From the NCBI GenBank assembly GCA_016193045.1, contig JACPSW010000059.1, positions 49,383 to 113,382 of the forward strand: DNA of 64,000 nucleotides, read 5' to 3'. The notes beneath the pieces were generated by a model that had not been told where the DNA came from, did not search any database, and saw only the letters and a program-made list of their open reading frames with translations. The number at the start of each line of letters is the position of its first letter. The first letter of the stretch is position 1. A program made the position numbers and the translations under genes. The DNA comes from Candidatus Rokuibacteriota bacterium. Its GTDB lineage: Bacteria; Methylomirabilota; Methylomirabilia; Rokubacteriales; CSP1-6. Of this stretch, positions 3,588-36,605 are shown in pieces.

Positions 3588-3591
3588 CGGG

Positions 3592-4215: not shown

Positions 4216-4248
4216 CCCGCCCCTCCGAAAAGTCCTCGGCCCCCGGCC

Positions 4249-4617: not shown

Positions 4618-4631
4618 GGGCGGCCCGAGCT

Positions 4632-5327: not shown

Positions 5328-5381
5328 CGGTGCCCCATTATGAGGCCTCCCTCGGTCCGGCGCAAACAGGGCAGGCAAAAA

Positions 5382-5422: not shown

Positions 5423-5437
5423 ACCAGGAGGCTGGAA

Positions 5438-6457: not shown

Positions 6458-6469
6458 GGCCGTGCCGGA

Positions 6470-8050: not shown

Positions 8051-8054
8051 CGCT

Positions 8055-9092: not shown

Positions 9093-9148
9093 GCCGGGGC
9101 CTGCTGATTCGCTCCCCAGGGGTAGATGCGGTAGCATGAAGTGTACCC

Positions 9149-20336: not shown

Positions 20337-21358
20337 TCGGATTCCCCTTGTGGCTTGCCGATCCTTACTACGCGCGGGTCAGTTGATCTAATTGGAAGCG
20401 ACGCCCAATGCGCAATCGGTTTCTTCAGGACACAAAAGACCGCAAAGACGAAAAATTCGTCCAGCAGGGGAATTTGGCTCAGGCCCCTCAACCAGTGGCC
20501 GACTCTGAACGCCTTTCCAGAAAATCCGATGCGCTCAAAGTGAACAGTTTCAAATGGTAGAACCTTGAGCATCCGCCGGAATTGACGGATCGTCATGTGG
20601 TTGAGGTACTCCTTCCAATGTTGGTGATCCGTGTAGGGATTCGGGCGACGTTTTCCGGTGTCGGGATCGAACCAATAGTAGGCAGGTGTGTATTCGTCTG
20701 AGGCGTAAAGGTAAGCCGCGGCGTTCAGGAGTGTCTCCATCGAGAAGACCGTATGGAGCCACGGAAGCGGAAGGATGTCCTCAAGGTGTGAACCATACGG
20801 ACCAAGCCAGGGATGAAAGTGGACCAGAAACACACCCCCCGGGCGCAAGAGGCGATAGCACTCCCTGAAAATGTCTTCGGCCCGGCTGAGATGTTCAACG
20901 GTGTCTACGGTGTAGACCACATCGACGGACTCGTTGGGCAGGGGAATGCCCGAGGCCGTGGATTCCACAAAATGGATTCCGTTGCCGTGCTCGGCGCGCC
21001 CACGGGCCAGAGCCGATCTATCAATGTCAATTCCGATTGGCGAAAACTGCTCCTGCTGGCGAAAGGCCTTGAGGAGGTATCCCGTCGAGCATCCGAGCTC
21101 AGCGACCGACTTTCCACTGAACCGGGCGAAACGAGCGAACAGGCCGTAGTATCTCTCGATGTTTGACAAGCGGTCATCCACATGGTTCTGAGCGCTATCG
21201 TATCTCGCTCCCAGTCGGCCGTATCTCAAACCGAACCGTCGGAGTCGTCCGCTAAGAAACACTCGAGCGACGGCCAAACATACCTTCTCCGAAACCCGTG
21301 TGAGCTCTGGCCGCCCATTCAGTGCGACATCCTGCATTTTCGCCTCATGCTGGCCCAC
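20333..21358 (-). CDS. Class I SAM-dependent methyltransferase.
   Basis: SAM-binding motif I (VAELGCSTGYL), motif post-I (IGIDID) and LLRPGGVF are present. Confidence 0.75.
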   Translation of the reverse strand: MGQHEAKMQDVALNGRPELTRVSEKVCLAVARVFLSGRLRRFGLRYGRLGARYDSAQNHVDDRLSNIERYYGLFARFARFSGKSVAELGCSTGYLLKAFRQQEQFSPIGIDIDRSALARGRAEHGNGIHFVESTASGIPLPNESVDVVYTVDTVEHLSRAEDIFRECYRLLRPGGVFLVHFHPWLGPYGSHLEDILPLPWLHTVFSMETLLNAAAYLYASDEYTPAYYWFDPDTGKRRPNPYTDHQHWKEYLNHMTIRQFRRMLKVLPFETVHFERIGFSGKAFRVGHWLRGLSQIPLLDEFFVFAVFCVLKKPIAHWASLPIRSTDPRVVRIGKPQGESE

Positions 21359-21743
21359 GGAACCCTCCGTCAGAAGGTCCTAACAGTCGTTCGAAGGCCC
21401 ACAAGCAAGGTGTGCCGTGAGGAGGGCGGCTGGAGAAGTCCGGGGCGTCATCACGGTTCCCATCGCCGAGCTGGCCGTAGTCGTTCAGCCCCCAGCACCG
21501 CACCGTGGCCTCCTCCAGGAGCGCGCAGGTGTGGAAGGCGCCGGCTTCGACGGCGGTGGCCGTGCTGATTACGGTCGCCGTGAACTGCTGGGTCTGGCCG
21601 ACGGCGATGGTGGGATCCGCCGGCGTGACGCTGATGGCCTGGGCGGCGACCTCATCTGTAGCCAGAGCGAGCACGAGGCTGAAGACGCCGGACAAAACCA
21701 GTGCTCTTGCCTTCCATTGTGGACCACGCCCATGTGGCTTCAT
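21345..21743 (-). pseudogene. Truncated paralog of the RCC1-repeat secreted protein. Only the signal peptide, Ig-like (Big_2) segment and first RCC1 blade survive before the frame diverges.
   Basis: About 300 bp (roughly 21440-21745) are near-identical to the 5' end of the full gene (roughly 24185-24444), including a 53-bp identical run (gccgtgaactgctgggtctggccgacggcgatggtgggatccgccggcgtgac). After about 100 codons the homology ends, and the ORF runs into the start of the methyltransferase gene. Confidence 0.5.
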
Positions 21744-23031: not shown

Positions 23032-24444
23032 TCACGGTAACACTGTGAGCGTGGTGCTCCCACTCCGGCCGCCGGAGGTCGCGGTGATCGTCGTGAATCC
23101 CGGGAGGAGGCCCGTGGCCAACCCAGTCGCAGTGATCGTGGCGACCGTCTCGTCGTCGCTCGTCCACGTCGCGCCGAGCCCGACCACTGTCACGGGAGTG
23201 AAGGCATCGGTGGTGGCGCCGTTGCCGAGCCGGCCGAACAGGCCCCGCCCCCAGCATTGCACCGTTCCGCCCGGAAGGAGCGCGCAGCCATGCTCGGCGC
23301 CCGATGTGGCGGCGGTGGCGGTAGTGATTCCGGTGACCCCGGCTCCCGGGGTGGCAAAAACGCCTCTCGGGCTCCCGTCGCCGCGCTGGCCGTAGTTGTT
23401 GTCCCCCCAGCATTGCACCCTTCCGTCCCCAAGGAGCACGCAGGTGTGCTCGGCGCCGGGTGCGAGGGCGGCGGGGGTGATGCCGCTGATGGTCACTGGG
23501 GTGGAGGACGAATTGAATGCTGGTGTCTGGCCGAGCTGGCCAAACTCGTTCCAGCCCCAGCATTGCATCGTGCCGTCCTGAAGGAGCGCGCAAGTGTGGA
23601 AGATGCCGGACTTGATGGCGACGTCCGTGGTGATTCCGGTGACCTCCACCGGGATGGGGGTGGGCCTGGGGGCGGGGGGGGCGGGGCGTTGAGTGATCGG
23701 GCTCCCATCGCCGAGCTGGCCGTACTCGTTCCGCCCCCAGCAGCGCACCCTGCCGTCCTGAAGGAGCGCGCAGGTGTGCCACCCGCCGGCGGAGACGGCG
23801 GTGGCCGTGGTGATTCCGAACACTTCCACCGGGGTGGAGTTGGTGAATAGTGGGAATAGCGCGGGTGCAGTGGTCCCGTTGCCAAGCTGGCCGTAGTCGT
23901 TCTGCCCCCAGCACCGCACGGTGCCGTTCTGAAGCAGCGCGCAGGTGTGGTAACCGCCGCCCGTCACGGCCGTGGCAGTGGTCATTCCGGTGACCGGCAC
24001 CGGCGTGGCGGAGAAGAAGGCAGTGGTGGCGGGGTCGCCGAGCTGGCCTTCACTGTTCCGCCCCCAGCATCCGAGCGTGCCGTCGGGAAAGCGCGCGCAG
24101 GTGTGGAAGCCGCCGCCCGTGACCGCCGCGGCGCCCGTGACCCCGGCGACCGCCACCGGGGTGGAGGAATCGGTTCGGGTCCCGTCGCCGAGCTGGCTGT
24201 AGTCGTTCAGCCCCCAGCAGCGCAGCGTGGCATCCTCCAAGAGCGCGCAGGTGTGGAAGGCCCCGGCTTCGACAGCGGAAGCCGTGTCGATTCCGGTCGC
24301 CGTGAACTGCTGGGTCTGGCCGACGGCGATGGTGGGATCCGCCGGCGTGACCGCGATGGTCTGCGCCACGACCTCGTCGGCGGCCAGAAGAGAGACGAGG
24401 CCGAGGACACCTAAGACAAGGACGAGGCTCGCATTTCTCTTCAT
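23032..24444 (-). CDS. Secreted RCC1-repeat (seven-blade beta-propeller) protein flanked by bacterial Ig-like (Big_2) domains.
   Basis: Signal peptide MKRNASLVLVLGVLGLVSLLAA. Seven repeats of the GxHTCALLxDGxxxCWGxNxxGQLGDG consensus follow. Big_2-like segments sit at the N-terminus (IAVTPADPTIAVGQTQQFTATG) and C-terminus. Confidence 0.8.
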   Translation of the reverse strand: MKRNASLVLVLGVLGLVSLLAADEVVAQTIAVTPADPTIAVGQTQQFTATGIDTASAVEAGAFHTCALLEDATLRCWGLNDYSQLGDGTRTDSSTPVAVAGVTGAAAVTGGGFHTCARFPDGTLGCWGRNSEGQLGDPATTAFFSATPVPVTGMTTATAVTGGGYHTCALLQNGTVRCWGQNDYGQLGNGTTAPALFPLFTNSTPVEVFGITTATAVSAGGWHTCALLQDGRVRCWGRNEYGQLGDGSPITQRPAPPAPRPTPIPVEVTGITTDVAIKSGIFHTCALLQDGTMQCWGWNEFGQLGQTPAFNSSSTPVTISGITPAALAPGAEHTCVLLGDGRVQCWGDNNYGQRGDGSPRGVFATPGAGVTGITTATAATSGAEHGCALLPGGTVQCWGRGLFGRLGNGATTDAFTPVTVVGLGATWTSDDETVATITATGLATGLLPGFTTITATSGGRSGSTTLTVLP

Positions 24445-24802
24445 CTCGTACCCTCCGCTCTACTTCTCTTTCGTAATCCACTCACCTTTTCGGGAGCCAC
24501 GCTCCACGATCAGTGCCGTCATCCTGACGCCATCCTAGAATCTCGAGCGGGGAAGGACAATCAGGTGGAAACCCGCATCAACCATGGGGGAATCCCCGAA
24601 CAGGTGGGGGAGGCGGCCTACAGTCGAGGCGTGCGGTTTGCGGTTCGATTTTGTAGCCAGTCAGGCTATGAGAGTTGATGCGATCGAGTCACGCTCGCTG
24701 CAGAGCGACCGATCGCTGTCTCGGGACCGAGAGACGAAGACCCTGTGGGGTGCCCGCCCTCCGTCAGTACCGCCCGGGGGCGGGCACCCCATCAATTGGC
24801 CT

Positions 24803-26452
24803 TCAGCCCAGCTTCTGGAACGCGTCGGCGGCGCGGAGCACCGTACCATCCTCCCAATGACGTCCAATCAGCATCATGCCGACTGGGAGTCCCGCGGACA
24901 TGCCGGCCGGGACGGTAGCTGCGGGATGGCCGGTCACGTCGAAGGGGGCGGTGTTGGCGATCATCTCGAGGGCCCGCGCCACGTACTCCTCGCGGCTGGC
25001 GTTGGGCGCGGGGAGCAGAGTAGCCTTCAGCGGCAGCGTCGGCATCAGGAGCAGATCCACGTTCTTCAGGGCCTCGTCGTAGGCGGCCCGGAGCACGCGG
25101 GCCAGGTTCTGGGCCTTGGCGTAGTAGCGGCCCTGGTAGTTGTCCTGCATGTACTGGCCGAGCAGGATGACCAGCTTGACGGTCTCCGACAGGTCATTGG
25201 CGCGCGCCCGTCGGCTCCGGCCGTAGAAGTCCAGCAGCGAGGTGGTATAGTGGCCCTTCCAGTTCGTCCCCATGCTGTTGCCGGCGACCATCAGCATAGT
25301 CGCGCCCTCGACGGCGATCGCATTCCAGATGTCGAGGCCGTCACGGTGGAGCGGGATGGACACCTCGCTCACGGAGGCCCCGGCCCCTGTCAAGCGCTGC
25401 CCGGCCTGGCGCACCATGTCATCCACGTCCCGCTCGGAGTTAGGCCAGGCGAACCCCTCCTTCACGATCCCGATGCGCAGGCCCCGGGCGTCTCCGGTGA
25501 GCCGCTTCGTGTACGCATCCGTGCGGAGCCCGGCTGGCTGGCGTGGGTCGAGGCCGTCGGGCCCGGCGATCACCTCCAGGAGCAGGGCGCAGTCAGCGGC
25601 GCTGCGGGCGATGGGGCCGGTGTGATCCAGCGTGAGCTCGATCGGGAAGACACCCGTGTAGGGCACCAGACCATAGGTCGGCTTGTGGCCGACGGCGCCG
25701 CAGAATGAACTCGGGATCCGGATCGATCCGCCCTGATCGCCGCCCATGGCCATGTCGCACTCGCGGGCTACCACCAGGGCCGCGCTACCGCTGGAGGAGC
25801 CGCCGGCCGATCGCTTCGGGTCGTGGGGGTTGAGGACGGGTCCCGTATCCGAGGTGTGGCTGCCGCCCGAGAAGCAAAGGTGCTCGCAGACCGACTTGCC
25901 AATGATCTCCCCGCCCGCGTCCAGAATGCGGGTCACGATGGTCGCGTCGACGTCGGGCACATAGCCTTCGAGGACGTTGGAACCGTTCATCATCGGGATC
26001 CCGGCGACGCAGACGTTGTCCTTGATCGCGATCTTCTTGCCGGCGAGCAGCCCGGAGGGCGCACCCTTGATCGAGGACTTCCAGTACCACGCGTTGAGCC
26101 GATTCTCAGAGGCGGGCGGACGGTGTCCCGCGTCCCGCGGGTACTTCACCGGCAGCGTGGGCTCCGCGAACTGGTCGAGGCGGCGGTACGAGGCGAGCAC
26201 CCCGTCCATAAGATTACGGAACGACGCGAGGTCCTCACGGCTCAGGTCCAGGCCGTAGGACCTGGCAATGCGCTCCAACTCGCCTAGCGGCGGCTTGCGC
26301 AGGATCCGCGGGGCGGTCGCGGCTGGTGGCGGGGCCTGCACCTCTGCGGCCCCGGCCTGGCTAGGCCTTGTCGGAGTGACGAGGGTCGCCGCCATGGCGG
26401 CCGCGCTCGTACGGAGAAACTGGCGACGCGAATGTTTCGGCGAACCTAGCAT
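24803..26452 (-). CDS. Amidase-signature-family amidase, TAT-exported.
   Basis: Start at MLGSPKHSRRQFLRTSAAAMAATLV (twin-arginine motif; GAGGAGG ribosome-binding site). The amidase-signature core (GGSSSGSAALVA) and Ser-cisSer-Lys triad region are present. Confidence 0.85.
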   Translation of the reverse strand: MLGSPKHSRRQFLRTSAAAMAATLVTPTRPSQAGAAEVQAPPPAATAPRILRKPPLGELERIARSYGLDLSREDLASFRNLMDGVLASYRRLDQFAEPTLPVKYPRDAGHRPPASENRLNAWYWKSSIKGAPSGLLAGKKIAIKDNVCVAGIPMMNGSNVLEGYVPDVDATIVTRILDAGGEIIGKSVCEHLCFSGGSHTSDTGPVLNPHDPKRSAGGSSSGSAALVVARECDMAMGGDQGGSIRIPSSFCGAVGHKPTYGLVPYTGVFPIELTLDHTGPIARSAADCALLLEVIAGPDGLDPRQPAGLRTDAYTKRLTGDARGLRIGIVKEGFAWPNSERDVDDMVRQAGQRLTGAGASVSEVSIPLHRDGLDIWNAIAVEGATMLMVAGNSMGTNWKGHYTTSLLDFYGRSRRARANDLSETVKLVILLGQYMQDNYQGRYYAKAQNLARVLRAAYDEALKNVDLLLMPTLPLKATLLPAPNASREEYVARALEMIANTAPFDVTGHPAATVPAGMSAGLPVGMMLIGRHWEDGTVLRAADAFQKLG

Positions 26453-26575
26453 CGCACATCCTCCTCTTGACCGGCGGGTTGTGAAACCAATCACCAGGAA
26501 AGCGTCGCCCCACGGTCTGCCGCTTCGTCTGGAAACATGACCGGGCGCCACTTCCCGTCAACACACATTCCTAAT

Positions 26576-29089
26576 TCATCGCGCAACCGCGCTAGATGGT
26601 GGGAAATCTGGGAGAAGGTCACCTGCGCTCGTCTCACCCGCCAAATCATGGACTCCACTGCGCAGCTTCCTGAATACGGCAAAAGCCAGCGCGTACAAAC
26701 CCAGTGCGACCAGGATAGCGACGTTCAAACCGAACGCTATGCTGATTGGCACGCTCAGTAGACCACCAACGACGGTAAACAAGCCGTTCATCCCCCACGC
26801 CCAAGCGATTGCACCACGAGGCTGGTTTGCGATCGCTAGAATGCCCAGAGGGAACGGCATACCGAGGAGAAACCCTACAGGAAATATCATAACCCCCGAC
26901 GCGAGGATTCTACCGGTAAGAGGCAATCCGAGAACCAGACCGGATAGCCATGGATAGAGTATCACAAACGCAAGACCCACGGCGAGGACTCCCAGGAACG
27001 GTATCGCCCATCTGCGCCGACATTCAATCCCCAACATCTCCGACGACCCGCTGCCGATTCCCGCTGCAAGCAGCAATGTGAATATGACCGTCGAATACGT
27101 GTGCAGTGGGCTGCCGATCAGTTGCATGAATTTTTGTATGAAGACGAGCTCAAGAATAATGAACCCCGCACCCAGGCAAGAAAAGTACAAGAGCAACGGT
27201 ACAGCGCTCGTCCCCCTTTCTCTGCCAATCTTCGAGAATCGCAGAGGAACCAGAACAAACAGCAATACAAATACAGCAGAAGCGAATCCGGTAAAGAATA
27301 AGTGCACCCAATCCATCGGAATGACGCCTTTGATGAGTGATTGGTTCAGAACAGCTGCAGTCCCCACATCCAGATAGTTCCTTGCATCCGGGTCCAAGCG
27401 CTCGATCGTCTTTCGAAGCAATCCAAAATAGGGTCTGTCGTCCGTGCGCGGCGTGACGTGAACGGCCATCCGGTCGGCCAGCTCATCGGGAAAACCCCCG
27501 GAATAAAACTCCTGCGACAGGAACCTCTCCTTCGGCTCCAGCGGATTCTCAACAAGACTCAGACGATGGTCTTCATCAGCCTCAGGCGGCGCCAGGAACT
27601 TGTTCAGCGACGCAATTTCCGCGGCTGTCCATGGCTGATTCTTTACCAGCAGAGTGGGCAGCAGAGGTTCCAGTGGGTAGGCATAGACAGCAACGTGGCG
27701 TGCAAAATCGGTTCGTCCCATGCGCTTCCACGCCAGCGCAGCGGTCGTAATCATTCTCGGATATGCATAGTGATTAATGTGCAGTATGCCATTGGCGGTC
27801 AGCCGCGAGAAATACTCCTGATAAGCCTCGGCAGTCTGCAGATACACCGGCGCTAGGGCGCCCGTGCCCTGCGCAACGCTCGAGCTTGTGTGATTGCTAT
27901 AGATCTGAATGACGTCGTACTTGCGGTCGCTGTGGCGTAAGAAGCTTCGACCTTCACCAGCCTGAACGCGCACAGCCGGGTTGTGAAATATGTGGCCGAT
28001 ATACTTCGAGTACCGACCGGTCGCGAGTTCGACTACGGTCGGCACCAGCTCTACAGCATCGATATAGGTCGCACCGTACATCAGGGCGGCTTTTGTTTCC
28101 TGGCCGCCTGCGCTCCCAATTACCAAGACCCTGTGCCCCGCATCGCGTTTCAGGTAGTGCGACGCCAAAACGCCGATCTGCCAGAAGTGCTCAGTAATAC
28201 GGGATTTGTCGTGCTCGATATGTTCCCGAAGAGACTTCAGATCGCCGTCAAACTTATAGAAGTAACTCGTCTGATTACCGCCGTCGTACTGAATGGCCTT
28301 TCGATCACCGTACCGATGCCATGGCGTGGATATTTCAGGTGACCACGTTTCATCGATCACCTCGATCTTTGATATCGGATCCCAGCGAACGAGCTCGCGC
28401 CTGCCTTTTTCGACGGCGTCCTTCACCCTCCCCTGCTTGTCCATGTGCTGCACAAAGTCAATATAGTCTGGTGCTTTGACCATTGGCAGGGCGACGGCCA
28501 GGACCGCTAGAACACCAGCAGCGCGACTGCGGAATCGCGACTCTGTAAACAACGCCGCCGCCAGGAGTCCCAGTCCCGCCGCACACACAATAAGGCCGCC
28601 AGGGCCGAGTGTTGATATGAATGGAACGACGATCACACTCCCCAAGCCCGCGCCGATCAGATCCCAGAAATACAATCTTTGAATCCTCAGCGCATATTTT
28701 GAGAACGTTGCAATGAGTACGTAACCGGCCAGAAAGAATGGAAGAAGCAGAGCCACGTACAGAAGGGCGAACGATGCCACGGTGATGAACGGACGTCGGA
28801 CGATGCTCGTGTAGTCAAGCGGCAAGACGTTGATCAGTGGGATCACCAACGCAGTCGTCGCCGCAAATCCAACGCTTCCTGTAAAAAGAATCTCACTGAT
28901 CTCTCGATCTACCGGAATCGGGCGCAGGGTCGCCCACACTCCAGCCAGACCAAAGGCGAATACGGCGACTGTTACGACGAAATAGGCGATGTTAGGGGCC
29001 AGCATCACGTCAAACACACGCGTAAGCATGAGCTCAAGCACCAGCGTCGCAAGAGCAATCAACAGGATTCCGCACGAAAGCCTGCGCAT
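26576..29089 (-). CDS. Large polytopic membrane protein with a central spermidine/spermine-synthase-like (aminopropyltransferase-fold) domain.
   Basis: 837 aa. An N-terminal block of about 7 transmembrane helices is followed by a soluble domain with VLVIGSAGGQETKAALMYGATYIDAVELVP...DVIQIY (a SpeE-like class I methyltransferase fold), then a second multi-helix membrane block. Its GC content is markedly lower than that of its neighbours. Confidence 0.65.
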   Translation of the reverse strand: MRRLSCGILLIALATLVLELMLTRVFDVMLAPNIAYFVVTVAVFAFGLAGVWATLRPIPVDREISEILFTGSVGFAATTALVIPLINVLPLDYTSIVRRPFITVASFALLYVALLLPFFLAGYVLIATFSKYALRIQRLYFWDLIGAGLGSVIVVPFISTLGPGGLIVCAAGLGLLAAALFTESRFRSRAAGVLAVLAVALPMVKAPDYIDFVQHMDKQGRVKDAVEKGRRELVRWDPISKIEVIDETWSPEISTPWHRYGDRKAIQYDGGNQTSYFYKFDGDLKSLREHIEHDKSRITEHFWQIGVLASHYLKRDAGHRVLVIGSAGGQETKAALMYGATYIDAVELVPTVVELATGRYSKYIGHIFHNPAVRVQAGEGRSFLRHSDRKYDVIQIYSNHTSSSVAQGTGALAPVYLQTAEAYQEYFSRLTANGILHINHYAYPRMITTAALAWKRMGRTDFARHVAVYAYPLEPLLPTLLVKNQPWTAAEIASLNKFLAPPEADEDHRLSLVENPLEPKERFLSQEFYSGGFPDELADRMAVHVTPRTDDRPYFGLLRKTIERLDPDARNYLDVGTAAVLNQSLIKGVIPMDWVHLFFTGFASAVFVLLFVLVPLRFSKIGRERGTSAVPLLLYFSCLGAGFIILELVFIQKFMQLIGSPLHTYSTVIFTLLLAAGIGSGSSEMLGIECRRRWAIPFLGVLAVGLAFVILYPWLSGLVLGLPLTGRILASGVMIFPVGFLLGMPFPLGILAIANQPRGAIAWAWGMNGLFTVVGGLLSVPISIAFGLNVAILVALGLYALAFAVFRKLRSGVHDLAGETSAGDLLPDFPPSSAVAR

Positions 29090-29099
29090 TCTCCTGCTC

Positions 29100-29525
29100 C
29101 TAGAAGGTGTTTACCGCCCTCATCGCACAGAGACGAGCCTCGGTCGCTGACAGGACCCAGCCTCTAACGTTGACTACGCGGCCATGCAGGAAATCGTCAC
29201 GTTGCTGCTGGTGCACCAAGTCGCGGAGTTTTTCTATGTCAGTGTCCAGGAGCTCGGCACCACGGCCTGGCCACGTTGAACAAATCACACCAAGCAGCAA
29301 CTGCACGTTCGCCTCGCTGGGGACCTGCTTAAGGTATTCTCGTCCAACGATCGCGGCGCTTTCTTTACAGGCCAACACACCAGCGAGTTTCGAAGCGCCC
29401 GGATCGTGGACTCTGCTCCTACGCACGGCACCCCACGTGCCTAGTGGGCGGCAGAGACCAAGGGCCCCCACCCAAAGCATGAAAGTCAGGAAACGTCGTC
29501 TGAGGATGCTTGTAGACGGGCTCAT
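29100..29525 (-). CDS. Gluconate 2-dehydrogenase subunit-3-family small TAT-exported subunit, the partner of the GMC oxidoreductase.
   Basis: Carries the RRRFLTF twin-arginine signal at the N-terminus and is the small subunit typically encoded beside GMC flavoproteins. It overlaps the upstream GMC gene by 4 nt. Confidence 0.6.
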   Translation of the reverse strand: MSPSTSILRRRFLTFMLWVGALGLCRPLGTWGAVRRSRVHDPGASKLAGVLACKESAAIVGREYLKQVPSEANVQLLLGVICSTWPGRGAELLDTDIEKLRDLVHQQQRDDFLHGRVVNVRGWVLSATEARLCAMRAVNTF

Positions 29526-31102
29526 GTCATAAGCCTCTTTACGTGGTCGGCTAGTCTCAGTGAAAGGGCCACGATCGTAAGCGTCGGATTCGAGGCGCCG
29601 GACGTGGGGAAGACAGAGCTCCCGGCTATGAACAGATTCGAGATATCGTGCACCCGGCAGTTCTCATCAACGACCCCCTTCTTGGGGTCGCGGTGCATGC
29701 GAGTCGTTCCTATGTGGTGAAAACCAATCAACGGCTGAGATGGGCCATTCTCTTCGTCAAGAATGATTTTGACGCGTCCCAGGCCAGCCCGGCCGAATTC
29801 TTCGGCGATAAGCTCGGTCGCCCGTCTGATGGCGTGCTTGTACGCCGCTGTCAAGCCCCAATGCAAGACTACGCGGTTCTGGCCAAGCACATCTCGCTCG
29901 GTACTGAGCGTCACGCGGCTATGTGGATCCGGGACTTGTTCAATGCCGCAAAAGAGTTCTGCCATGCGAACCGGGGTCACCCCCTTGAAGACTCTTCCAT
30001 AGCCGAGCCTCGCGACATCATCGATGTCAGCAATGACGTTGCCTAGATGTTCGGAGAGATCGTCGGGCATAGAGGGCTTGCGCACAGCGTCGAAGAGAAA
30101 CTGAAGAGAGGCTATCCCTTTGGGTTGTATCGGCGCCAGATGTACCCGAAAATTCACAAGGTTGAAGCTACGCTGCGTCTCTCGGGTAGGCACGAGGGCG
30201 CCCTTGATCGCTGTCCGTCGTCGGCTTCCTGGAGGATTCTCGTGTCTCGGGGACGTGTAGGATTCGTATAGGCGAATGGGGAGGTAGGGATTCGAGAGCA
30301 GGAGAACGGCGGATTGTTGCCACGGGTGTTCCATGAAGAATCTTCCGACCAGGTCGTACTGGTTGCCGAGCCCGGCCCTTCGGACTTGATTGGACAAGAG
30401 TAACAAGCGGGCGTTCTCGATGACGCCCGTTGCGAGGATGAAGATCTTCGCTGCGACCCAATATCTATTGCCTTGCAGGCTGGCCACGCGGACCCGTGTG
30501 ACGGTTCTGCCGTTGGGGGGCGTCTCGATGTTGATCACGTTGGCGTAGAGGTTGAGGGTGATATTGCCCGCTCGCACGATTTCATCGCGGTAAACCTTGC
30601 CAAACCGGGTGGGCGGACTCAGCTGAATGATCTTGGTGATCACGCGGTCGCCATTGAAGTGGAAGCGGGGGGCACTTGGAGTCTCCCAAGCGTCCGCGTC
30701 ATAGAGAAAGGGCCCCAACTCGCAGATTGATTGAGCGCGCTCGTAAAACGGATCGAGATGATTCTTATTGAAAGGCCAACCGCTGTACGGAATCCAGTCG
30801 CGTGACTCGAAGTCGATTTCGTCCAGGGGTTGGCACCAACCTGTCCAGTGGTTGGTCGTACCACCGAAGTAACGGAGGCGGGCCACGTCCAGCGGCGGAT
30901 AGGGAAATCCCGTGTTCTCGCCGGCGTAAAGTGACTGCGTACCCTTCTCGAACTCGAGGCCTCCACTCTCGAGGAGGCAGACCCGGAACGGCTGGCCGAC
31001 GAACTGACGCGCCAGGGTAATTCCGGCCGCTCCGGCTCCGATGATGCAGACGTCGGTCTGGATGGTTTGGTCGCCTGGCACCGCGTGGGCATCAATGACC
31101 AA
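29522..31102 (-). CDS. GMC-family FAD-dependent oxidoreductase.
   Basis: N-terminal DVCIIGAGAAGITLA FAD-binding motif. The GMC family typically carries a C-terminal His/Asn active-site region (not checked here). Confidence 0.85.
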   Translation of the reverse strand: MVIDAHAVPGDQTIQTDVCIIGAGAAGITLARQFVGQPFRVCLLESGGLEFEKGTQSLYAGENTGFPYPPLDVARLRYFGGTTNHWTGWCQPLDEIDFESRDWIPYSGWPFNKNHLDPFYERAQSICELGPFLYDADAWETPSAPRFHFNGDRVITKIIQLSPPTRFGKVYRDEIVRAGNITLNLYANVINIETPPNGRTVTRVRVASLQGNRYWVAAKIFILATGVIENARLLLLSNQVRRAGLGNQYDLVGRFFMEHPWQQSAVLLLSNPYLPIRLYESYTSPRHENPPGSRRRTAIKGALVPTRETQRSFNLVNFRVHLAPIQPKGIASLQFLFDAVRKPSMPDDLSEHLGNVIADIDDVARLGYGRVFKGVTPVRMAELFCGIEQVPDPHSRVTLSTERDVLGQNRVVLHWGLTAAYKHAIRRATELIAEEFGRAGLGRVKIILDEENGPSQPLIGFHHIGTTRMHRDPKKGVVDENCRVHDISNLFIAGSSVFPTSGASNPTLTIVALSLRLADHVKRLMT

Positions 31103-31141
31103 GAGAGGTCCTCCTCAAGGCGTGGCGGCCCCGCACCGGCC

Positions 31142-32062
31142 TCATCGCCGAGCCCCCGAATCGGCGGAGGCGGCGTGGCGCACGTCCGGGCGGTCGCGGA
31201 CGGCCAGCATGGCTGCGACGAGCCGAATGAGATCGCGGTGATGCAGGAGGGGATCGTGGCCCACCCGGGCCCGAAACAGGAAGTTCCCCGGGCTGGTCTC
31301 CTCGGCGGGCACGCCGGCCGGAATGTCCAGGGGAATACCCCCCGCGCCGTCCAGCACCGCGCTCCGCTCCGGCGCGATCCACCGGTCGGGCTCGATCCGG
31401 ACGGTCAGGTAGAGGATGCTGCGGCGGCTGTCGGGCGGGACGCGCGGGCCCCCGGGTCGGTCGCTCCCGAGGCCGTGCGGTGTCTCGTCGACCCACGCCC
31501 CGTCGGCGCCGTTGAGGGCCACCTGCAGGGGGTGCGTCTGGGCGCTGGTCGCGAAGGCCGGGCACATCTCTCGCGCAGCCTCATGGGTGAAGCGGCAGAG
31601 CGCGTTGGTGCCGTGGTTGGCTCCGACAAGGCTGACCCACGTGCGCACGACCTCGGGATGAAGCTTGGCGGCGTACCACCGGCTGCTCACCGCCCCCATG
31701 CTGTGCGACACGATGTCGAGCCGTTGGGGCATTTCGCCCCGGTATCCGCCACCCTGGGCGGCGGCGTTCGCCCTGACGAGGAGCGCTGCCGCCGCCGGCG
31801 CGATCACCGAGGTCGCCGCCGGGATGTTGGCCATGGTGTTCGGGACAATGTCCACGGCGTGCAGGTATTCGCTCGGGTACCCGATGCCGACCAGATACCT
31901 GATGAGAGGTCGCCAGTCGGCCGAGGACAGCCCGTGACCGTGGACGAAAAGCACCGGCGTCCGCGCATAGTCGGCGGTCTCCGAGCGAACTGCCGAGCAT
32001 CCCGACGCGAGCCCGAGCAGCAGCGACATCGCCCACAGTCGCAAGGGCCGGCAGCGTTGCAT
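31142..32062 (-). CDS. Lipoprotein lipase/esterase of the alpha/beta-hydrolase fold (triacylglycerol-lipase-like).
   Basis: Start at MQRCRPLRLWAMSLLLGLASGC (lipobox L-A-S-G-C). Motifs include PVLFVHGHG, the nucleophile elbow HSMG, and VGANHGT. The start codon overlaps the upstream acyltransferase stop. Confidence 0.7.
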   Translation of the reverse strand: MQRCRPLRLWAMSLLLGLASGCSAVRSETADYARTPVLFVHGHGLSSADWRPLIRYLVGIGYPSEYLHAVDIVPNTMANIPAATSVIAPAAAALLVRANAAAQGGGYRGEMPQRLDIVSHSMGAVSSRWYAAKLHPEVVRTWVSLVGANHGTNALCRFTHEAAREMCPAFATSAQTHPLQVALNGADGAWVDETPHGLGSDRPGGPRVPPDSRRSILYLTVRIEPDRWIAPERSAVLDGAGGIPLDIPAGVPAEETSPGNFLFRARVGHDPLLHHRDLIRLVAAMLAVRDRPDVRHAASADSGARR

Positions 32063-33526: not shown

Positions 33527-34863
33527 GAGGCTCTCCTCATCTTCTTGAACCGCTCACCGTGCATCTTTTCGTCAACGATCAGCACCTTCTGGGGGATCTT
33601 GAATCCCGACAGCCTGTCCCGGCAAAAGATCCGCATCCGCCTCCTGAACTCGGGGAGCGTCTCCCCGGTGCTGAGGCTGACCTTGACCGCCACGATCTGT
33701 CCGGTGATGGGATTCGCTTCGGCACTAACGGTGACGTCCTTCACGCCCTCCATGCACAGGAGAACGCTCTCCACCTCCGCCGGGTAGACCTTTTCCCCGC
33801 CGACATTGATGATCTCGGATGGACGTCCGAGAATGCGGAGGTACTCCCCGTCCACTTCCACGGCGTCGCCCGTCGGGAACCAGCCATCGGGCGTGAACGG
33901 GCTCGGGGCGTTCAAATACCCCAGCATGGCCGACTGGGCCCGGATCTGGAGCATCCCATCGACGACACGCGTCTCGAATCCTTCCCCGCCCACCTTGACC
34001 CAGAGCGAGTCGGAGGATCTGGACTGCGAGCGCAGGATGCCGACTTCCGAGAGGCCGTAGGTCTGCAGCAAACGGATGCCAGGAAACAGCTGGCGGAACC
34101 GGGTCAGGGTGCTCTCCGGCATCACCTCGGTCCCGTACGTCACCAGCTCCAGGCTGGAGAGGTCGTGGTCCTTGTAGGCCTCGCTCGCCAGCAGGAGGTT
34201 GATGAACGTCGGGGAGGTAGGGAGCAGCTGGACCCGGTATTTCTCGATGGCTGCGCAGACCACCTCGGGCGAGCGGTCCTGGACCGTCACGATGCAGCCG
34301 GCGTTGGACAGGACGTACAGCAGCGTGTTCACGCCGCCGATGTGGTCGAAGAGCAGAAACGTCAGGGTGCGGAGCGCGTGCCGTGGGACCTTGAACTTCT
34401 CGAGAAGCGGGACGAAATCGTGGACCGCGGCCTTGCTCTTTCCGGTGGACCCGGACGAGAAGAGGACGAGCCCGGGATGCTGCGCGCTCCGCAACCTCGT
34501 GAACAGCTCGTGGCTCGGTCGGGCAGCCGTGTGCGCCGGGCGGGCCTGATCGTCGGCGCTCACGGAAACGATCGCCTCCACCTGGGCGATGGCCCGGAAC
34601 TCCGGCTTCTTCATCTCGACCGAGGAGGTCAGCGGGACGACGATGCATCCCCGCTCGACCAGGGCGAGGAGGAGCGCGATCGCGTTGGGCGAGAAGTCGC
34701 CTTCCAGGCTGACGACCGTGCCCGGAGCGGCGTCGGCGAGGGACCGGCCCCAGCGATCGACGGCGTCCGCCAGCCAGCCGTACGAGACGACCTGCTCGCG
34801 CCAGACGACCGCGTCCTTCGTGTGATTCGCGCGAAACCCGTCGAGCAAGAAGTCGATATGCAT
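33523..34863 (-). CDS. AMP-dependent synthetase/ligase (ANL superfamily), likely a fatty-acyl-AMP / acyl-ACP ligase.
   Basis: The AMP-binding motif LFSSGSTGKSKAAV, the YGLSE motif and the TGD hinge are present. A short C-terminal domain (446 aa total) and proximity to an ACP gene favour an acyl-AMP ligase role. Confidence 0.8.
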   Translation of the reverse strand: MHIDFLLDGFRANHTKDAVVWREQVVSYGWLADAVDRWGRSLADAAPGTVVSLEGDFSPNAIALLLALVERGCIVVPLTSSVEMKKPEFRAIAQVEAIVSVSADDQARPAHTAARPSHELFTRLRSAQHPGLVLFSSGSTGKSKAAVHDFVPLLEKFKVPRHALRTLTFLLFDHIGGVNTLLYVLSNAGCIVTVQDRSPEVVCAAIEKYRVQLLPTSPTFINLLLASEAYKDHDLSSLELVTYGTEVMPESTLTRFRQLFPGIRLLQTYGLSEVGILRSQSRSSDSLWVKVGGEGFETRVVDGMLQIRAQSAMLGYLNAPSPFTPDGWFPTGDAVEVDGEYLRILGRPSEIINVGGEKVYPAEVESVLLCMEGVKDVTVSAEANPITGQIVAVKVSLSTGETLPEFRRRMRIFCRDRLSGFKIPQKVLIVDEKMHGERFKKMRRAS

Positions 34864-36605
34864 CAGCCACCGCGCCGGGCATGAACGAGTTCGCCCGGCG
34901 ATCCCGCGACCGCGGCCCCGTCAACCCGATACAGTCGGACGTCGGGCGCAGCCAGGACCGCCACCAGCCATGGGGGGACGTCCCCGCGCTCGAGCTGCTG
35001 GAAGAACGGCCGGTTGCCATCCGAGGGATGGGTCGGGTCGAACAGGCCAGGGAAGAAGATGACGTAGGCCACCCCGTACGAGGCGACGAGCCGCCTGACC
35101 TGGTCGTCCGTCCACACCCGCCGGGTATACGCCGCTTGCGTGAGGCCCAGCACGGGCCGATCCAGCACGGCTCCCAGCATCTGGGCTTCGTTGCCGAGGA
35201 GCGGGCTGGCCGTCGTGACCCGTTGGCGCAGGAACAGGACCAGGGGCTCGCCAGCGAGAGGGCCCTCCAGGGCGTCCCGTATCGTGCGGTAGGGATTGGC
35301 CTGGGTGAGCGGGCGCCAGTGGTGGTGGAACACGTTGACCTGCCCTGCCAGGAGAGTGACCACGGCGGCCCCCACCCACAGCCGGGCCGCCCACGCATGC
35401 CGCGAGCGGCTCGGCGTGAAGCGGATCACCCTCACCCCATCCGCGAGGCAGAGGAGTCCGAACGGGATCAGGGCCAGGAGGTAACGCGGGCTGATGTGTC
35501 CGGAGGCGTAATTCCGGGCCCCCTGGACCATGAGAATGATGCTGACGGCCATGTACGCCAGCGAGAGGGAGACATGAGTCTCCGCAAGGGCGGCCCGCAG
35601 GGCGGACCTGTCGATCTTGAGGCGACCGATCCAGCACACCCCACCAACAAGACCGGCCGCCGCGACGATGACGAACGCGACCTCCGGCGCGCTCCCGCCC
35701 AGAAGTCCGGACTTCGTGAATCCGAAGATCCCTCCTAACGCCCACCCGACAGTCCGGTGTAACTCCATCAGCGGGTCCCCGGGGAGCATGGTGCCCGTCA
35801 GTTTTCCCGTCAGCACGAGATTGCGAAGGAACAGGGCCACCACGAACACGGACGCCGGGCCAGTGGCGAGAATCAGGGCGCGGGCGGACTGCCAGTCTCG
35901 CTGGCGGATGACCCGCACCAGGAAAAAGAGCCCCAGGCTGATGACATAGTAGACCCCCTGGTAGCGGACGGTGAAGGCCAGCCCGGCCACTGTCCCCGCC
36001 GCTGCCAGCCAGAGGTCGCGCCGCCCGGGATCCCGTTCCCCCTGCATGGCGCACCTCAGGCTGACCAGCGTCAGCAGAGTGAAGGGCATCTCGCTCATAC
36101 AGCCGAGCACGTTGAACCAGGCGAACGGAGAACCGAGCCAGACCGCGCTGACTGCGAACGAGCGCAGGGGCGTATGGCCTGCGGTCCTGAGGATGTCGTA
36201 GATGACCAGCGCGACGGCCCCGAACGAGAGCAGCGAGACCAGGAAGGCGGCATAGGGCGGATCGAGACCCAGCCGGCTGCCCAGCGCGATGAGCAGCGGA
36301 TAGCCCGGCGGGAAGACCGTCTGCGGGGCGGGCACCCCGCCCAGGCGGTATTGCTCTTCGTGCCAGACGATACTGGTGGCGAAGCCGTGGCCGCTAGCCA
36401 GGTTCTTGGCGGCGTTCACGAAAAACGCGCCGTCGATGCCGATGAACGAGCGATCGTAGAGCGCGGTGAGGCCGCCCAGCGACGCGCCGAGCAGGAGCGC
36501 CCACAGCGCGAGCGCCAGCCCGGCCGAGCCTGCGGCCGCTCTCCCGGCCGCGCGCCCTTCCCCGGCCTCACTCGCGATACCGTCCAGCCGGACGTCGGGC
36601 CACAT
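34863..36605 (-). CDS. GT-C fold membrane glycosyltransferase of the ArnT/PMT family (GT39/GT83-like), dependent on a polyprenyl-phosphate sugar donor.
   Basis: Start at MWPDVRLDG (36605), giving 580 aa. The shadow N-terminal extension of the ORF listed at 34863..37208 is excluded. It has about 13 transmembrane helices, a PMT_2-like loop and a C-terminal soluble domain. Confidence 0.7.
   Translation of the reverse strand: MWPDVRLDGIASEAGEGRAAGRAAAGSAGLALALWALLLGASLGGLTALYDRSFIGIDGAFFVNAAKNLASGHGFATSIVWHEEQYRLGGVPAPQTVFPPGYPLLIALGSRLGLDPPYAAFLVSLLSFGAVALVIYDILRTAGHTPLRSFAVSAVWLGSPFAWFNVLGCMSEMPFTLLTLVSLRCAMQGERDPGRRDLWLAAAGTVAGLAFTVRYQGVYYVISLGLFFLVRVIRQRDWQSARALILATGPASVFVVALFLRNLVLTGKLTGTMLPGDPLMELHRTVGWALGGIFGFTKSGLLGGSAPEVAFVIVAAAGLVGGVCWIGRLKIDRSALRAALAETHVSLSLAYMAVSIILMVQGARNYASGHISPRYLLALIPFGLLCLADGVRVIRFTPSRSRHAWAARLWVGAAVVTLLAGQVNVFHHHWRPLTQANPYRTIRDALEGPLAGEPLVLFLRQRVTTASPLLGNEAQMLGAVLDRPVLGLTQAAYTRRVWTDDQVRRLVASYGVAYVIFFPGLFDPTHPSDGNRPFFQQLERGDVPPWLVAVLAAPDVRLYRVDGAAVAGSPGELVHARRGG

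Follow-up and report, generated by a model that had tools for sequence, protein, structure and literature searches.

The window, the whole 64-kb stretch of DNA that was analysed, comes from the genome of a soil bacterium (Candidatus Rokubacteria) and carries a polysaccharide locus of the Wzx/Wzy type. A block of low GC content within this locus is a cassette of three minus-strand genes (Table 1). The locus further encodes Bac_transf, Wzx (Polysacc_synt), Wzy_C, GT4, two GT2 proteins, UDP-sugar dehydrogenases, DegT, GFO, a deacetylase, an ACP, an AMP-ligase and a GT-C enzyme. The lipase gene call was taken from the source organism's own contig, and the true start of the PMT_2 gene was set from the gene calls of L169. 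An earlier note had read the cassette as a GMC oxidoreductase, a small partner with a Tat signal and a polytopic protein whose SpeE-like fold is flanked by two transmembrane blocks; these open reading frames, on the minus strand, were confirmed.

Table 1. Coordinates of the cassette genes and neighboring features in the window
Feature	Coordinates	Strand	Remark
GC-rich palindrome, 23+23 nt, near-perfect	24746..24791		12 nt past amidase stop codon
Tat-signal amidase-signature enzyme	24803..26452	-	Directly downstream of cassette
837-aa membrane protein, MFS-type fold with SpeE-fold domain	26576..29089	-	Last cassette gene
141-aa twin-arginine (Tat) signal partner	29100..29525	-	ATG overlaps GMC stop
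GMC-family FAD oxidoreductase, 526 aa	29522..31102	-	Cassette gene 1
Class-2 lipase / alpha-beta hydrolase, 306 aa	31142..32062	-	Upstream cassette flank; Pfam Lipase_2 E 1e-4
PMT_2-type GT-C membrane glycosyltransferase, 580 aa	34863..36605	-	Pfam PMT_2 and DUF2079

The GC content of the block from 26576 to 31102 was 0.565, compared with 0.663 for the rest of the window (z = -4.0; other 4.5-kb windows had a mean of 0.661, an sd of 0.024 and a minimum of 0.617). In 1-kb windows, GC was 0.544 to 0.581 between 27 and 31 kb and 0.62 to 0.71 in the flanks. In 300-bp windows it remained at 0.49 to 0.59 from about 26450 to 30950 and jumped to 0.65 to 0.76 on both sides, with the lowest value, 0.487, at 27050-27349. 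The GC3 values of the 837-aa, 141-aa and GMC genes were 0.62, 0.64 and 0.69, respectively, compared with a mean of 0.85 (sd 0.07) for the other 38 genes of the window, and their codon-bias z scores were 4.4, 4.9 and 1.3. The dip matches exactly the three cassette genes. These non-uniform GC and codon-usage profiles (GC3 of 0.62 to 0.69 against about 0.85) bear out the AT-rich block of about 26.6 to 31.1 kb described in the earlier note, but the span given there to the feature, 24803 to 31102, also took in the amidase gene, whose composition is native (GC3 0.85, codon-bias z of -0.7). Outside the 4.5-kb block one methyltransferase gene deviates, and the remaining locus has host-like GC3.

The call of an amidase with a Tat signal was correct: it matched Pfam Amidase (E 3e-98), NF005565 (790 bits; cut-off, 545) and TAT_signal (23.0 bits; cut-off, 22.7), and its ATG at 26452 is preceded by a GGAGGA ribosome-binding site. 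It had been placed upstream of the 837-aa gene in transcription order; with every gene here on the minus strand, it lies downstream. Its presence at the cassette junction is specific to this lineage, and the relatives L088, L168, L053 and L085 lack it. The palindrome past the amidase gene (inverted repeat I2, arms 83% complementary, 0-nt spacer) may mark where the transcription unit ends and is followed by a 350-bp spacer of lower GC and then by an RCC1 gene. At the other junction, the lipase gene has native GC and is located elsewhere in the locus in relatives. No tRNA, mobility gene (integrase or transposase) or flanking direct repeat was found around the cassette.

The GMC protein matched Pfam GMC_oxred_C (E 6e-22) and DAO (E 4e-7). 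Among solved structures, the best match was the alpha subunit of the B. cepacia FAD-glucose dehydrogenase (BcGDH; 6a2u, E 5e-27), and the large subunit of fructose dehydrogenase also matched (7w2j, E 1e-22). The gene starts with TTG, with a GAGGAGG ribosome-binding site ahead. The GxGxxG motif begins at residue 22, leaving no room for a signal peptide, and His85 (in TTNHW) aligns with His105, the FAD-linked residue of BcGDH (PMC6719666). The six Cys residues of the protein are scattered and form no cluster. The protein is 100% identical to one assigned by NCBI to a Candidatus Rokubacteria MAG.

The 141-aa partner has the N-terminus MSPSTSILRRRFLTFMLWVGALGL...TWGA, and its RR motif is kept in 25 of 25 aligned family members. 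The ATG of its gene overlaps the GMC stop by 4 nt (ATGA), indicating translational coupling. Among 41 metagenome loci of at least 7 kb, on contigs ranging from 0.37 to 0.75 in GC, at least 27 have a homologous ORF directly beside the GMC gene. Searches of Pfam, NCBIfam and PDB sequences with the 141-aa protein gave no match, and neither sequence nor fold comparison revealed homology to known hitchhiker subunits, which counts against a hitchhiker role. In BcGDH the small subunit is a Tat-signal hitchhiker required for export of the catalytic subunit (PMC6719666). We infer the same architecture for the cassette pair from the invariant RR, the 4-nt overlap, the adjacency across diverse loci and the export of the nearest solved relatives by Tat small subunits. 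Such pairs recur in the glycan loci of many phyla, beside genes for GT4, GT2, epimerase, AsnB, sulfotransferase and ABC-2, and several lineages have a GT4 or epimerase gene close to a homologue of the 837-aa protein; the cassette genes are therefore not atypical for a glycan locus, as had been suggested. No neighbor of the MFS/SpeE family was universal in the 77 genome loci compared, and outside the Rokubacteria group the family had no link to GT-C or GMC genes.

The AF2 model of the 837-aa protein (pLDDT 75.8, pTM 0.71) has a 14-helix MFS-type fold, with a SpeE-fold domain at about residues 206 to 590 between two extra helices, TM7 and TM8. Pfam MFS_1 gave no match, and the SpeE match in Pfam and NCBIfam was weak and below threshold. 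Intramembrane acidic and basic residues (E19, R24, D27, D143 and E647) are conserved in the family. The earlier note had proposed a check of the SpeE acidic residues. In 80 of 80 family members, GGGDGG is without its Asp and D-S-x-D without either of its two; the first position is G or A in all 80 and never D in 104 of 104 broader relatives, and the catalytic motif is replaced by [Y/F/M]-S-N-[H/Y/F]. All members (100%) have E347, all (100%) have E or D at position 379, and the Gly-rich loop is kept. The loss of the aminopropyltransferase Asp residues makes canonical aminopropyl transfer unlikely. Some public sources label homologues as spermidine synthase, and weak matches to PF01564, PRK00811, PRK03612, TIGR00417 and solved SpeE structures would agree with a membrane-bound polyamine aminopropyltransferase (spermidine or spermine synthase). 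The scores are far under the curated cut-offs (15.9 versus 22.9, 25.3 versus 260 and 19.3 versus 250), D-S-T-D-P is replaced, and spermidine synthase loses its activity on a D103I or D101I change (PMC3725402). This assignment is contradicted by the motif census and is highly improbable.

The location of the domain was considered from positive-inside statistics. In 103 diverse homologues, K+R was 1.75 to 2.9 in the cytoplasmic loops and 0.02 to 0.76 in the opposite loops, and both loops bracketing TM7, the domain and TM8 are K/R-rich. The domain is thus predicted to be periplasmic, where SAM and dcSAM are not expected. TM7 is weakly hydrophobic (maximum, 1.58), so the topology is not secure, and the conservation of the adenosyl-binding-type positions counts against a periplasmic domain. 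Both observations would fit a 12-TM transporter with a cytoplasmic SpeE-like domain that is an active SAM-dependent (methyl) transferase modifying the substrate before export. The motif-I glycines, the ribose-binding Glu E347 and the adenine-position acid E379 are kept family-wide, insertions in the MFS central loop are usually cytoplasmic, and in plant putrescine N-methyltransferase it is by losing the GGGDGG Asp that spermidine synthase is turned towards SAM use (PMC3725402). In that arrangement, however, the strongly hydrophobic helix 592-623 would invert all later loops, putting K+R values of 2.9, 1.9 and 1.75 outside and 0.08, 0.14 and 0.02 inside. The LELxxxR/K helix repeat also places the start of the second MFS half at TM9 rather than TM8, and the altered D-S-x-D motif speaks against an active transferase. 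A cytoplasmic methyltransferase is therefore rather unlikely.

The cassette is present with the same gene order in the same Wzx/Wzy glycan locus of the relatives L088/L002, L168 and L085, whereas L053 has the MFS homologue alone, without the GMC and small-subunit genes. The order is hexapep > GMC > small > MFS > RCC1 in L088/L002 and L168, SDR > GMC > small > MFS > PMT_2 in L085, and PQQ-dehydrogenase-family protein > MFS > PMT_2 in L053; across related lineages the cassette has three different positions within the shared locus. In L085 the PMT_2 gene starts at 14566, directly after the end of the 834-aa gene at 14565, and in L053 it likewise directly follows the 837-aa homologue (9254 and 9264). 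The hexapeptide transferase gene directly adjoins the GMC gene in L088, L002 and L168, with the lipase homologue several kb upstream or off the contig. In L053 the lipase gene is directly ahead of RCC1.

Protein identity to the window was 83 to 87% for the cassette (69 to 76% for the small subunit) and 70 to 89% for the flanks, and the four related lineages were about equidistant (star-like) for cassette and flanks alike. The dN values were 0.07 to 0.095 for the GMC and MFS genes, 0.15 to 0.19 for the small subunit and 0.05 to 0.18 for the flanks; dS was raised in the cassette only. Cassette GC3 was 0.69 to 0.78 in L002 and L168, 0.77 to 0.83 in L085 and 0.84 in L053, compared with 0.86 to 0.93 in their own flanks. 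Every relative shows the dip, each more weakly than the window genome, indicating that the composition is fully native nowhere. These results indicate that the cassette is common to sister lineages, has moved within the locus and shows the same divergence as its flanks (83 to 87% versus 80 to 89% protein identity). Its composition looks foreign, but it is an old component of the glycan cluster that has been shuffled, not a private recent insertion.

The earlier note had suggested horizontal insertion into a pre-existing locus. A recent, lineage-specific insertion of a foreign 4.5-kb fragment into a complete glycan locus would account for the sharp break in GC, GC3 and codon usage exactly at gene boundaries, the deepest dip in the window genome, and the higher dS of the cassette than of the flanks. 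In the synteny comparison, it would also account for the lack of GMC and small-subunit genes in L053, where lipase directly precedes RCC1, and for the difference of both junctions from those of L088 and L168, lipase and amidase being there only in the window genome. The presence of all three genes in unchanged order in L088/L002, L168 and L085, the flank-like, star-like divergence and the absence of detected mobility marks or direct repeats nevertheless argue against it. No homologue closer than the clade members was found outside the clade, where the next best matches were at 70% (MFS, Steroidobacteraceae) and about 60% (GMC), from different sources. Recent insertion is therefore unlikely. 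Equally improbable is that no transfer occurred and that low GC3 is intrinsic, by selection or mutation, for example through slow-translation codons (14-TM protein, Tat complex) or low expression. The cassette genes are the lowest-GC3 genes of the locus in all five lineages, and the congruent divergence and lack of mobility marks would also agree. However, Wzx, Wzy and PMT_2, other membrane proteins of the locus, have GC3 of 0.85 to 0.89, and the Tat amidase 0.85. The MFS homologue is native in Steroidobacteraceae and other hosts (0.79 to 0.82 versus 0.75 to 0.84), GMC and small-subunit pairs match host GC3 in L086 and L087, and the size of the dip varies among close lineages (GC3 0.62 to 0.84).

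The best explanation of the whole, held with moderate confidence, is an ancestral cassette, mobile within the locus, that probably serves periplasmic glycan tailoring. The ancestral locus would have received the cassette from a source of lower GC, or the cassette would circulate among close relatives, and it would be incompletely ameliorated, least so in the window genome. Later rearrangements would have put the lipase and Tat amidase genes at the two junctions. The GC3 spread of 0.62 to 0.84 counts against this ancestral reading, since the flanks of the lineages differ by a dS of only about 0.3; it may be attributed to repeated exchange with lower-GC donors or to lineage-specific amelioration rates, which are not separable.

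The cassette probably modifies a sugar polymer outside the cell membrane. A periplasm-facing role, as the earlier note proposed, is the most coherent reading, but the aminopropyl transfer included there is unlikely. The folded flavoprotein would hitchhike through the Tat pathway with the 141-aa protein and, once in the periplasm, would oxidize a sugar hydroxyl on the glycan or its lipid-linked precursor. With neither an Fe-S cluster nor a cytochrome c partner, its electrons would pass to quinone, O2 or another acceptor. The MFS protein may move the precursor across the membrane, possibly a polyprenyl-phosphate sugar for the neighboring PMT_2 GT-C transferase; a flippase for the GT-C donor is a conjecture from the two adjacencies in L085 and L053. 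The SpeE-fold domain, predicted to be periplasmic, may bind or modify the moved precursor without canonical dcSAM chemistry, and the Tat amidase would add periplasmic amide hydrolysis in the window lineage only.

The GMC pair resembles BcGDH (6a2u) and the Gluconobacter fructose dehydrogenase (7w2j), whose GMC-fold catalytic subunits likewise have no signal peptide; as in BcGDH, the twin-arginine signal is on the adjacent small protein and the FAD-linkage His is conserved. Unlike BcGDH-type complexes, the cassette protein has no Cys212/218/222-type cluster and hence no 3Fe-4S. No multi-haem cytochrome c subunit, as in FAD-sugar dehydrogenase complexes, was found: CxxCH occurs in none of the plausible genes of the 64 kb. 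The known small subunits showed no detected sequence or fold similarity to the 141-aa protein. Those dehydrogenases belong to respiratory sugar-oxidation operons, whereas the cassette-type pairs occur in glycan-synthesis loci. Compared with SpeE (PF01564), the 837-aa domain retains the motif-I Gly loop, the acid after beta-2 and the acid at the adenine position, but it is without both Asp of D-S-x-D, scores under all family cut-offs, and is inserted in a membrane transporter with a predicted periplasmic location. Loss of the GGGDGG Asp is shared with the plant putrescine N-methyltransferase, which is derived from SpeE (PMC3725402). The protein shares conserved intramembrane acidic and basic residues with 14-TM MFS transporters (DHA2-type: NorC, EfpA, EmrB) and the lipid flippase LtaA, but it has a 385-residue enzyme-like domain in the TM7-TM8 loop and no MFS_1 match.

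The window also has several counterparts of the Arn/Gtr systems, which combine a polyprenyl-P-sugar synthase, a flippase and a GT-C enzyme: a DegT aminotransferase, a GT2 that best matches polyprenyl-P-sugar synthases, ArnC among them, a deacetylase-family protein resembling ArnD and a PMT_2 GT-C enzyme, and in two relatives the MFS gene adjoins the GT-C gene. All of these match under the equivalog cut-offs, and the window showed no small ORF resembling GtrA or ArnEF. O-antigen and capsule Wzx/Wzy gene clusters can be mosaic and of low GC. The window locus is likewise a heteropolysaccharide Wzx/Wzy locus with blocks of deviating composition and a gene order that varies between close relatives, but here the 4.5-kb sub-block and one methyltransferase gene alone deviate.

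The AT-richer stretch within the polysaccharide locus that an earlier note had claimed was confirmed. The GC content of the block at 26576-31102 was 0.565, compared with 0.663 elsewhere in the window (z = -4.0), and the lowest value among the other 4.5-kb windows was 0.617. In 1-kb windows, the GC content was 0.544 to 0.581 between 27 and 31 kb and mostly 0.62 to 0.72 in the surroundings. In 300-bp windows, values of 0.65-0.70 gave way to 0.57 at about 26450-26600; inside the block they were 0.49 to 0.59, lowest (0.487) at 27050-27349, and they climbed to 0.69-0.76 at the right edge, at about 30950-31250. The block is limited to exactly three minus-strand ORFs, here called the cassette, which encode a GMC flavoprotein, a small protein and a membrane protein with a SpeE-fold domain (MFS/SpeE). 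The GC3 values of these genes were 0.69, 0.64 and 0.62, respectively, and the mean of the 38 other window genes was 0.85 (sd, 0.07; cassette z, -2.4 to -3.4). When codon usage was compared with that of the remaining window (Karlin codon bias), the MFS/SpeE (z = 4.4) and small-protein (z = 4.9) genes were outliers, and the GMC gene showed a mild rise (z = 1.3). The cassette thus has the deviating base composition and codon usage of a genomic island.

The amidase gene had been counted as part of this island and placed upstream of the cassette. Its composition was native (GC3, 0.85; codon-bias z, -0.7), and all of these genes lie on the minus strand, so they are transcribed in the order lipase, GMC, small protein, MFS/SpeE, amidase, with the amidase gene downstream. 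The enzyme matched PF01425 (330 bits), NF005565 (790 bits versus 545) and PF10518 (23.0 bits versus 22.7), and it contains the signature GGSSSGSAA and the twin-arginine motif SRRQFLR, as a Tat-exported amidase-signature protein does. The palindrome directly after its stop codon is a possible terminus of a long transcription unit.

Features in and around the cassette (window positions, except the last line)
Feature	Position	Strand	Remarks
Left-flank genes	405-11222	+/-	Molybdopterin oxidoreductase (1060 aa), DtxR-family/FeoA regulator, ABC transporter with solute-binding protein, putative Zn-peptidase, D-Ala-D-Ala-ligase-like ATP-grasp protein
Class I methyltransferase	20333-21358	-	GC3 ~0.65, codon-bias z 3.1
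132-aa ORF	21345-21743	-	One or two RCC1 repeats only; odd codon usage, z 2.8
RCC1/Big_2 gene	23032-24444	-
Direct repeats in RCC1 gene	24034-24276		Two of 93 nt, 74% identical, 150 nt apart
Palindrome	24746-24791		GC-rich, 23+23 nt; followed by a 350-bp lower-GC spacer
Amidase	24803-26452	-
MFS/SpeE	26576-29089	-	837 aa
Small protein	29100-29525	-	141 aa
GMC flavoprotein	29522-31102	-	526 aa
Lipase	31142-32062	-
PMT_2 GT-C enzyme	34863-36605	-	580 aa; gene calls on the organism's own contig
Mechanical ORF	34863-37208		781 aa; fusion of two genes according to the same gene calls
SDR	36605-37303	-	Gene calls on the organism's own contig
ACP	37305-37601	-	98-aa ORF just upstream; phosphopantetheine site LDSLG
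PQQ-dehydrogenase-family beta-propeller	5205-6671 of L053	+	Directly upstream of the MFS/SpeE gene

Contigs identical to the source were found in two public soil read sets, and the GMC protein had 100% identity to a protein assigned by NCBI to a Candidatus Rokubacteria MAG. Because the left-flank genes are unrelated to glycan synthesis, the glycan locus begins near 12 kb; it is of the Wzx/Wzy type and extends to the right end of the window. It encodes an initiating Bac_transf enzyme, two UDP-sugar dehydrogenases, Wzx (Polysacc_synt), Wzy_C, a GT4 and two GT2 enzymes, as well as a heparinase II/III-like protein and beta-helix proteins. It also has a flavin amine-oxidase-family protein, a DegT aminotransferase, GFO/IDH/MocA oxidoreductases and UDP-GlcNAc 2-epimerases. 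Further members are a polysaccharide deacetylase, the ACP, the SDR, the PMT_2 GT-C glycosyltransferase, an AMP-dependent ligase, a GNAT protein, a hexapeptide transferase, the lipase, methyltransferases and the RCC1/Big_2 protein. The ACP, two UDP-GlcNAc 2-epimerases, an epimerase/dehydratase and another 373-aa gene were located in gaps between annotated genes. The 132-aa ORF, 1.3 kb further downstream than the complete RCC1/Big_2 gene, is possibly a pseudogene or a shortened duplicate. The direct repeats within the RCC1 gene are internal protein repeats, not a mobile element.

The cassette was also found in the glycan loci of related lineages. In L088/L002 and L168, it lies between the hexapeptide transferase and RCC1 genes (hexapeptide transferase, GMC, small protein, MFS, RCC1, methyltransferases), and the lipase at the junction and the amidase of the window are missing. 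In L085, it is elsewhere in the locus (deacetylase, ACP, SDR, GMC, small protein, MFS, PMT_2), and the amidase is missing. GMC and the small protein are missing from L053 alone, which also has no amidase and retains the MFS gene in the order PQQ-dehydrogenase-family beta-propeller, MFS, PMT_2, AMP-ligase, GNAT, hexapeptide transferase, X, lipase, RCC1. The beta-propeller scored 474 bits with TIGR03075, just under the cut-off of 480, and also resembled the "empty quinoprotein" group; it may stand in for the periplasmic dehydrogenase as a non-orthologous substitute.

Identity to the window was 83 to 87% for GMC and MFS (90% for the GMC of L168), 69 to 76% for the small protein and 70 to 89% for the flanking genes, and pairwise distances among the four lineages were similar for cassette and flanks. 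The dN was 0.07 to 0.095 for GMC and MFS, 0.05 to 0.18 for the flanks and 0.15 to 0.19 for the small protein, and the dS was 0.21 to 0.37 for most flanks, 0.33 to 0.45 for GMC and 0.47 to 0.77 for MFS. A raised dS with a flank-like dN in GMC and MFS is as expected if synonymous composition alone had shifted. The cassette genes had the lowest GC3 of the locus in every relative, with a smaller dip than in the window: 0.69 to 0.78 in L002/L168, 0.77 to 0.83 in L085 and 0.84 in L053, compared with 0.86 to 0.93 in their flanks. The class I methyltransferase gene is a second compositional outlier of the window. The GC3 of its L088 orthologue was 0.78, the same trend as in the cassette, with less amelioration in the window.

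The block had been interpreted as a horizontal insertion into a pre-existing locus. As a recent event, this is contradicted by the presence of the cassette in relatives, by its flank-like divergence and by the absence of mobility marks. A genomic island is expected to be missing at the corresponding site of close relatives, and here the cassette occupies that site in L088/L002 and L168. No tRNA was found in the window, the block was flanked by short chance direct or inverted repeats only, Pfam scans of the neighbours revealed no integrase or transposase domains, and there was no enrichment of promoters or terminators; intergenic gaps were 10 to 123 bp. The insertion reading had been made to depend on the same genes not being present in all related loci with native composition; the genes were present, but their composition was not fully native.

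L168, the closest further relative, was rejected as a lower-GC donor since it is a high-GC3 host with a dipped cassette again. Steroidobacteraceae, the nearest outgroup of the MFS gene (~70% identity), were also rejected as donor: their copies have a native GC3 of ~0.8, and the GMC gene is missing. The nearest outgroup of GMC and the small protein consisted of diverse contigs with a GC content of 0.51 to 0.64 (~58 to 61% identity). Most plausibly, the cassette was put together and acquired before the split of these lineages, or was exchanged among them; its amelioration is still under way, and its position within the locus has changed. The whole phenomenon is an ordinary, compositionally mosaic glycan locus. 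A sharp compositional island is not necessarily a recent insertion; this block probably dates back as far as the locus family itself.

The identities proposed for the three genes were borne out. The 837-aa protein has two pseudo-symmetric six-helix bundles, as MFS transporters do, and its hydropathy profile indicated 7 + 7 helices; no MFS profile (PF07690 or related) was found in Pfam or NCBIfam, even at E values up to 10. Among 103 diverse full-length relatives, the loops alternate between K+R-rich (1.75 to 2.9) and K+R-poor (0.02 to 0.76), and the loops preceding helix 186-208 and following helix 592-623 are both K+R-rich. The TM1-type repeat LELxxxR/K lies in the ninth helix, not the eighth, and TM7 is weakly hydrophobic. 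The simplest topology is a 14-TM MFS protein, in which the loop between TM7 and TM8 would be periplasmic and would hold the SpeE-fold domain.

This architecture is widespread, with 2,215 clusters at 50% identity (E <= 1e-30) and relatives in 170 GTDB species genomes. Identity to the 837-aa protein was 61 to 72% in Steroidobacteraceae and 43 to 52% in Gemmatimonadota, Acidobacteriota, Desulfobulbaceae, Nitrospirales and others. No gene neighbour is common to the whole family, no clustered ORF occurring in more than 9 of 77 genome loci, and a literature search on MFS-spermidine-synthase fusions found nothing relevant. The Steroidobacteraceae MAG contig DATMRM010000049.1 (L014, L047) apparently carries two MFS/SpeE copies with a distant GMC gene (29% identical) between them, the only case outside Rokubacteria with the two families near each other.

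The inserted domain has the beta-hairpin N-domain and Rossmann domain of the SpeE fold, with SpeE-family scores of 15.9 bits versus 22.9 (PF01564), 25.3 versus 260 (PRK00811) and 19.3 versus 249.6 (TIGR00417). The aminopropyl transfer suggested earlier did not survive a residue check on 80 homologues from many phyla, all of which lack the Asp residues of GGGDGG and D-S-T-D-P. The GGGDGG Asp site (position 328) is G in 72 and A in 8 of them, and G, A, S or C, never D, in 104 broader representatives; D-S-T-D-P is replaced by [Y/F/M]-S-N-[H/Y/F]-[T/S] in all 80. The ribose-binding E347 is kept in 100% of the homologues, E379 (adenine position) is E or D in 100%, and the motif-I glycines and the YDGGxQ motif are also conserved. 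In spermidine synthase, the GGGDGG Asp binds the dcSAM amine and excludes SAM, and its mutation abolishes activity (PMC3725402). Because this residue is absent from the homologues, canonical aminopropyl transfer by the 837-aa protein appears unlikely from the alignment. In distant members (27 to 34% identity; P0295-P0399) of the same ~800-aa architecture, motif I is IGxGGGxD and the catalytic loop is V-D-T, indicating that the superfamily has at least two chemically distinct subgroups; to judge by these motifs, some distant members may be active enzymes. Databases often name this family "spermidine synthase," and relabelling of what is predicted not to be able to act as one would avert false inference of polyamine metabolism in metagenomes.

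The GMC protein matched PF05199 (GMC_oxred_C; E = 6e-22, 79 bits, cut-off 24.6) and PF01266 (E = 4e-7) and has the fold of the GMC family, with IIGAGAAG at residues 20-27. It begins directly with the FAD-binding fold, indicating that it has no signal peptide. The N terminus of the 141-aa protein contains ILRRRFLTF, then a hydrophobic stretch and TWGA, and the RR pair is invariant among its homologues. Its ATG overlaps the GMC stop codon (4-nt overlap). In most of the 80 metagenome loci recovered by searching with the GMC protein, a small-protein homologue directly adjoins the GMC gene, independently of host GC (0.37 to 0.75). No family match for the 141-aa protein was found in Pfam, NCBIfam or a PDB profile search; among 25 family members scanned with Pfam, TAT_signal was detected in 3, with one marginal PF12318 match. 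The genes had been considered atypical for a glycan locus. The GMC and small-protein pair recurs in other phyla beside GT4, epimerase/dehydratase, AsnB-type amidotransferase, sulfotransferase, ABC-2, GT2, TylF-type methyltransferase and deacetylase genes, indicating that it is a common glycan-locus module.

Wherever products around the cassette could be localised, they appear to face the periplasm: the flavoprotein with its Tat-signal partner, the Tat amidase, the GT-C enzyme and the predicted periplasmic SpeE-fold domain. The PQQ-dehydrogenase-family protein in place of GMC and the small protein in L053 probably does so too. The periplasmic role proposed in the earlier note seems right in part. 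The locus also contains Arn/Gtr-like ingredients, namely, the DegT aminotransferase, a deacetylase-family protein and the PMT_2 GT-C enzyme, and its GT2 best matched polyprenyl-P-sugar synthases; no GtrA- or ArnEF-type flippase was seen in the unannotated gaps of the window. On the basis of the periplasm-facing parts and these ingredients, a mechanism is proposed with modest confidence. The MFS protein would deliver an amino-sugar precursor, lipid-linked or soluble, to the periplasmic side for use by the GT-C enzyme, and its SpeE-fold domain would handle the delivered precursor. The GMC/small-protein complex would then oxidise a sugar hydroxyl of the product, and the amidase might provide an extra, lineage-specific step.

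A bolder reading, which we consider improbable, is that the 837-aa family is an uncharacterised 14-TM MFS class whose periplasmic SpeE-fold domain is a working transferase. Supplied by its own transporter with a cytoplasmic donor, SAM-derived or polyprenyl-linked, it would form a self-contained "export-and-transfer" machine for alkylating or otherwise decorating amino-sugar glycans outside the cytoplasm, with a logic like that of AT3-SGNH O-acetyltransferases, and would be teamed here with a cytochrome-free, Tat-exported sugar dehydrogenase. If the periplasmic placement is true, the question is then which chemistry a SAM-enzyme fold carries out in that compartment. The predicted periplasmic SpeE-fold domain in this very large and unstudied MFS family is the one feature worth pursuit.

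The second recurrent, unstudied module is the predicted Tat-exported GMC dehydrogenase with its private small partner, present in polysaccharide loci of many phyla. The best PDB matches to the GMC protein were the FAD-glucose dehydrogenase of Burkholderia cepacia (BcGDH; 6a2u, E = 5.4e-27) and the fructose dehydrogenase of Gluconobacter (FDH; 7w2j, E = 1.5e-22), followed by pyranose and glycoside oxidases. All of these enzymes oxidise sugar hydroxyls. The FHHIGTTRM and SNPTLT segments of the GMC protein, candidates for the active-site His and the Asn/His pair near the C terminus, line up with the equivalent 6a2u segments in the HMMER alignment. As in BcGDH and FDH, the catalytic subunit is a homologue of the alpha or large subunit, and as in BcGDH, a small Tat-signal protein is encoded beside it; the architecture is shared, and no homology to known small subunits was detectable by sequence or fold. 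The small gamma subunit of BcGDH is a Tat-signal hitchhiker needed to export the alpha subunit, whose 3Fe-4S loop contains Cys212, Cys218 and Cys222 (PMC6719666). In contrast, the cassette GMC has Cys only at 19, 42, 90, 127, 385 and 482, with no Cys cluster that could bind 3Fe-4S. The 64 kb also contain no gene for a membrane-bound multi-haem cytochrome c subunit: no cytochrome c partner was found near the cassette, including unannotated gaps, and among ORFs of at least 100 aa, CxxCH occurred in one 130-aa frame near 373, at the window edge and outside called genes. The module thus differs from its characterised relatives in having neither the Fe-S cluster nor the cytochrome.
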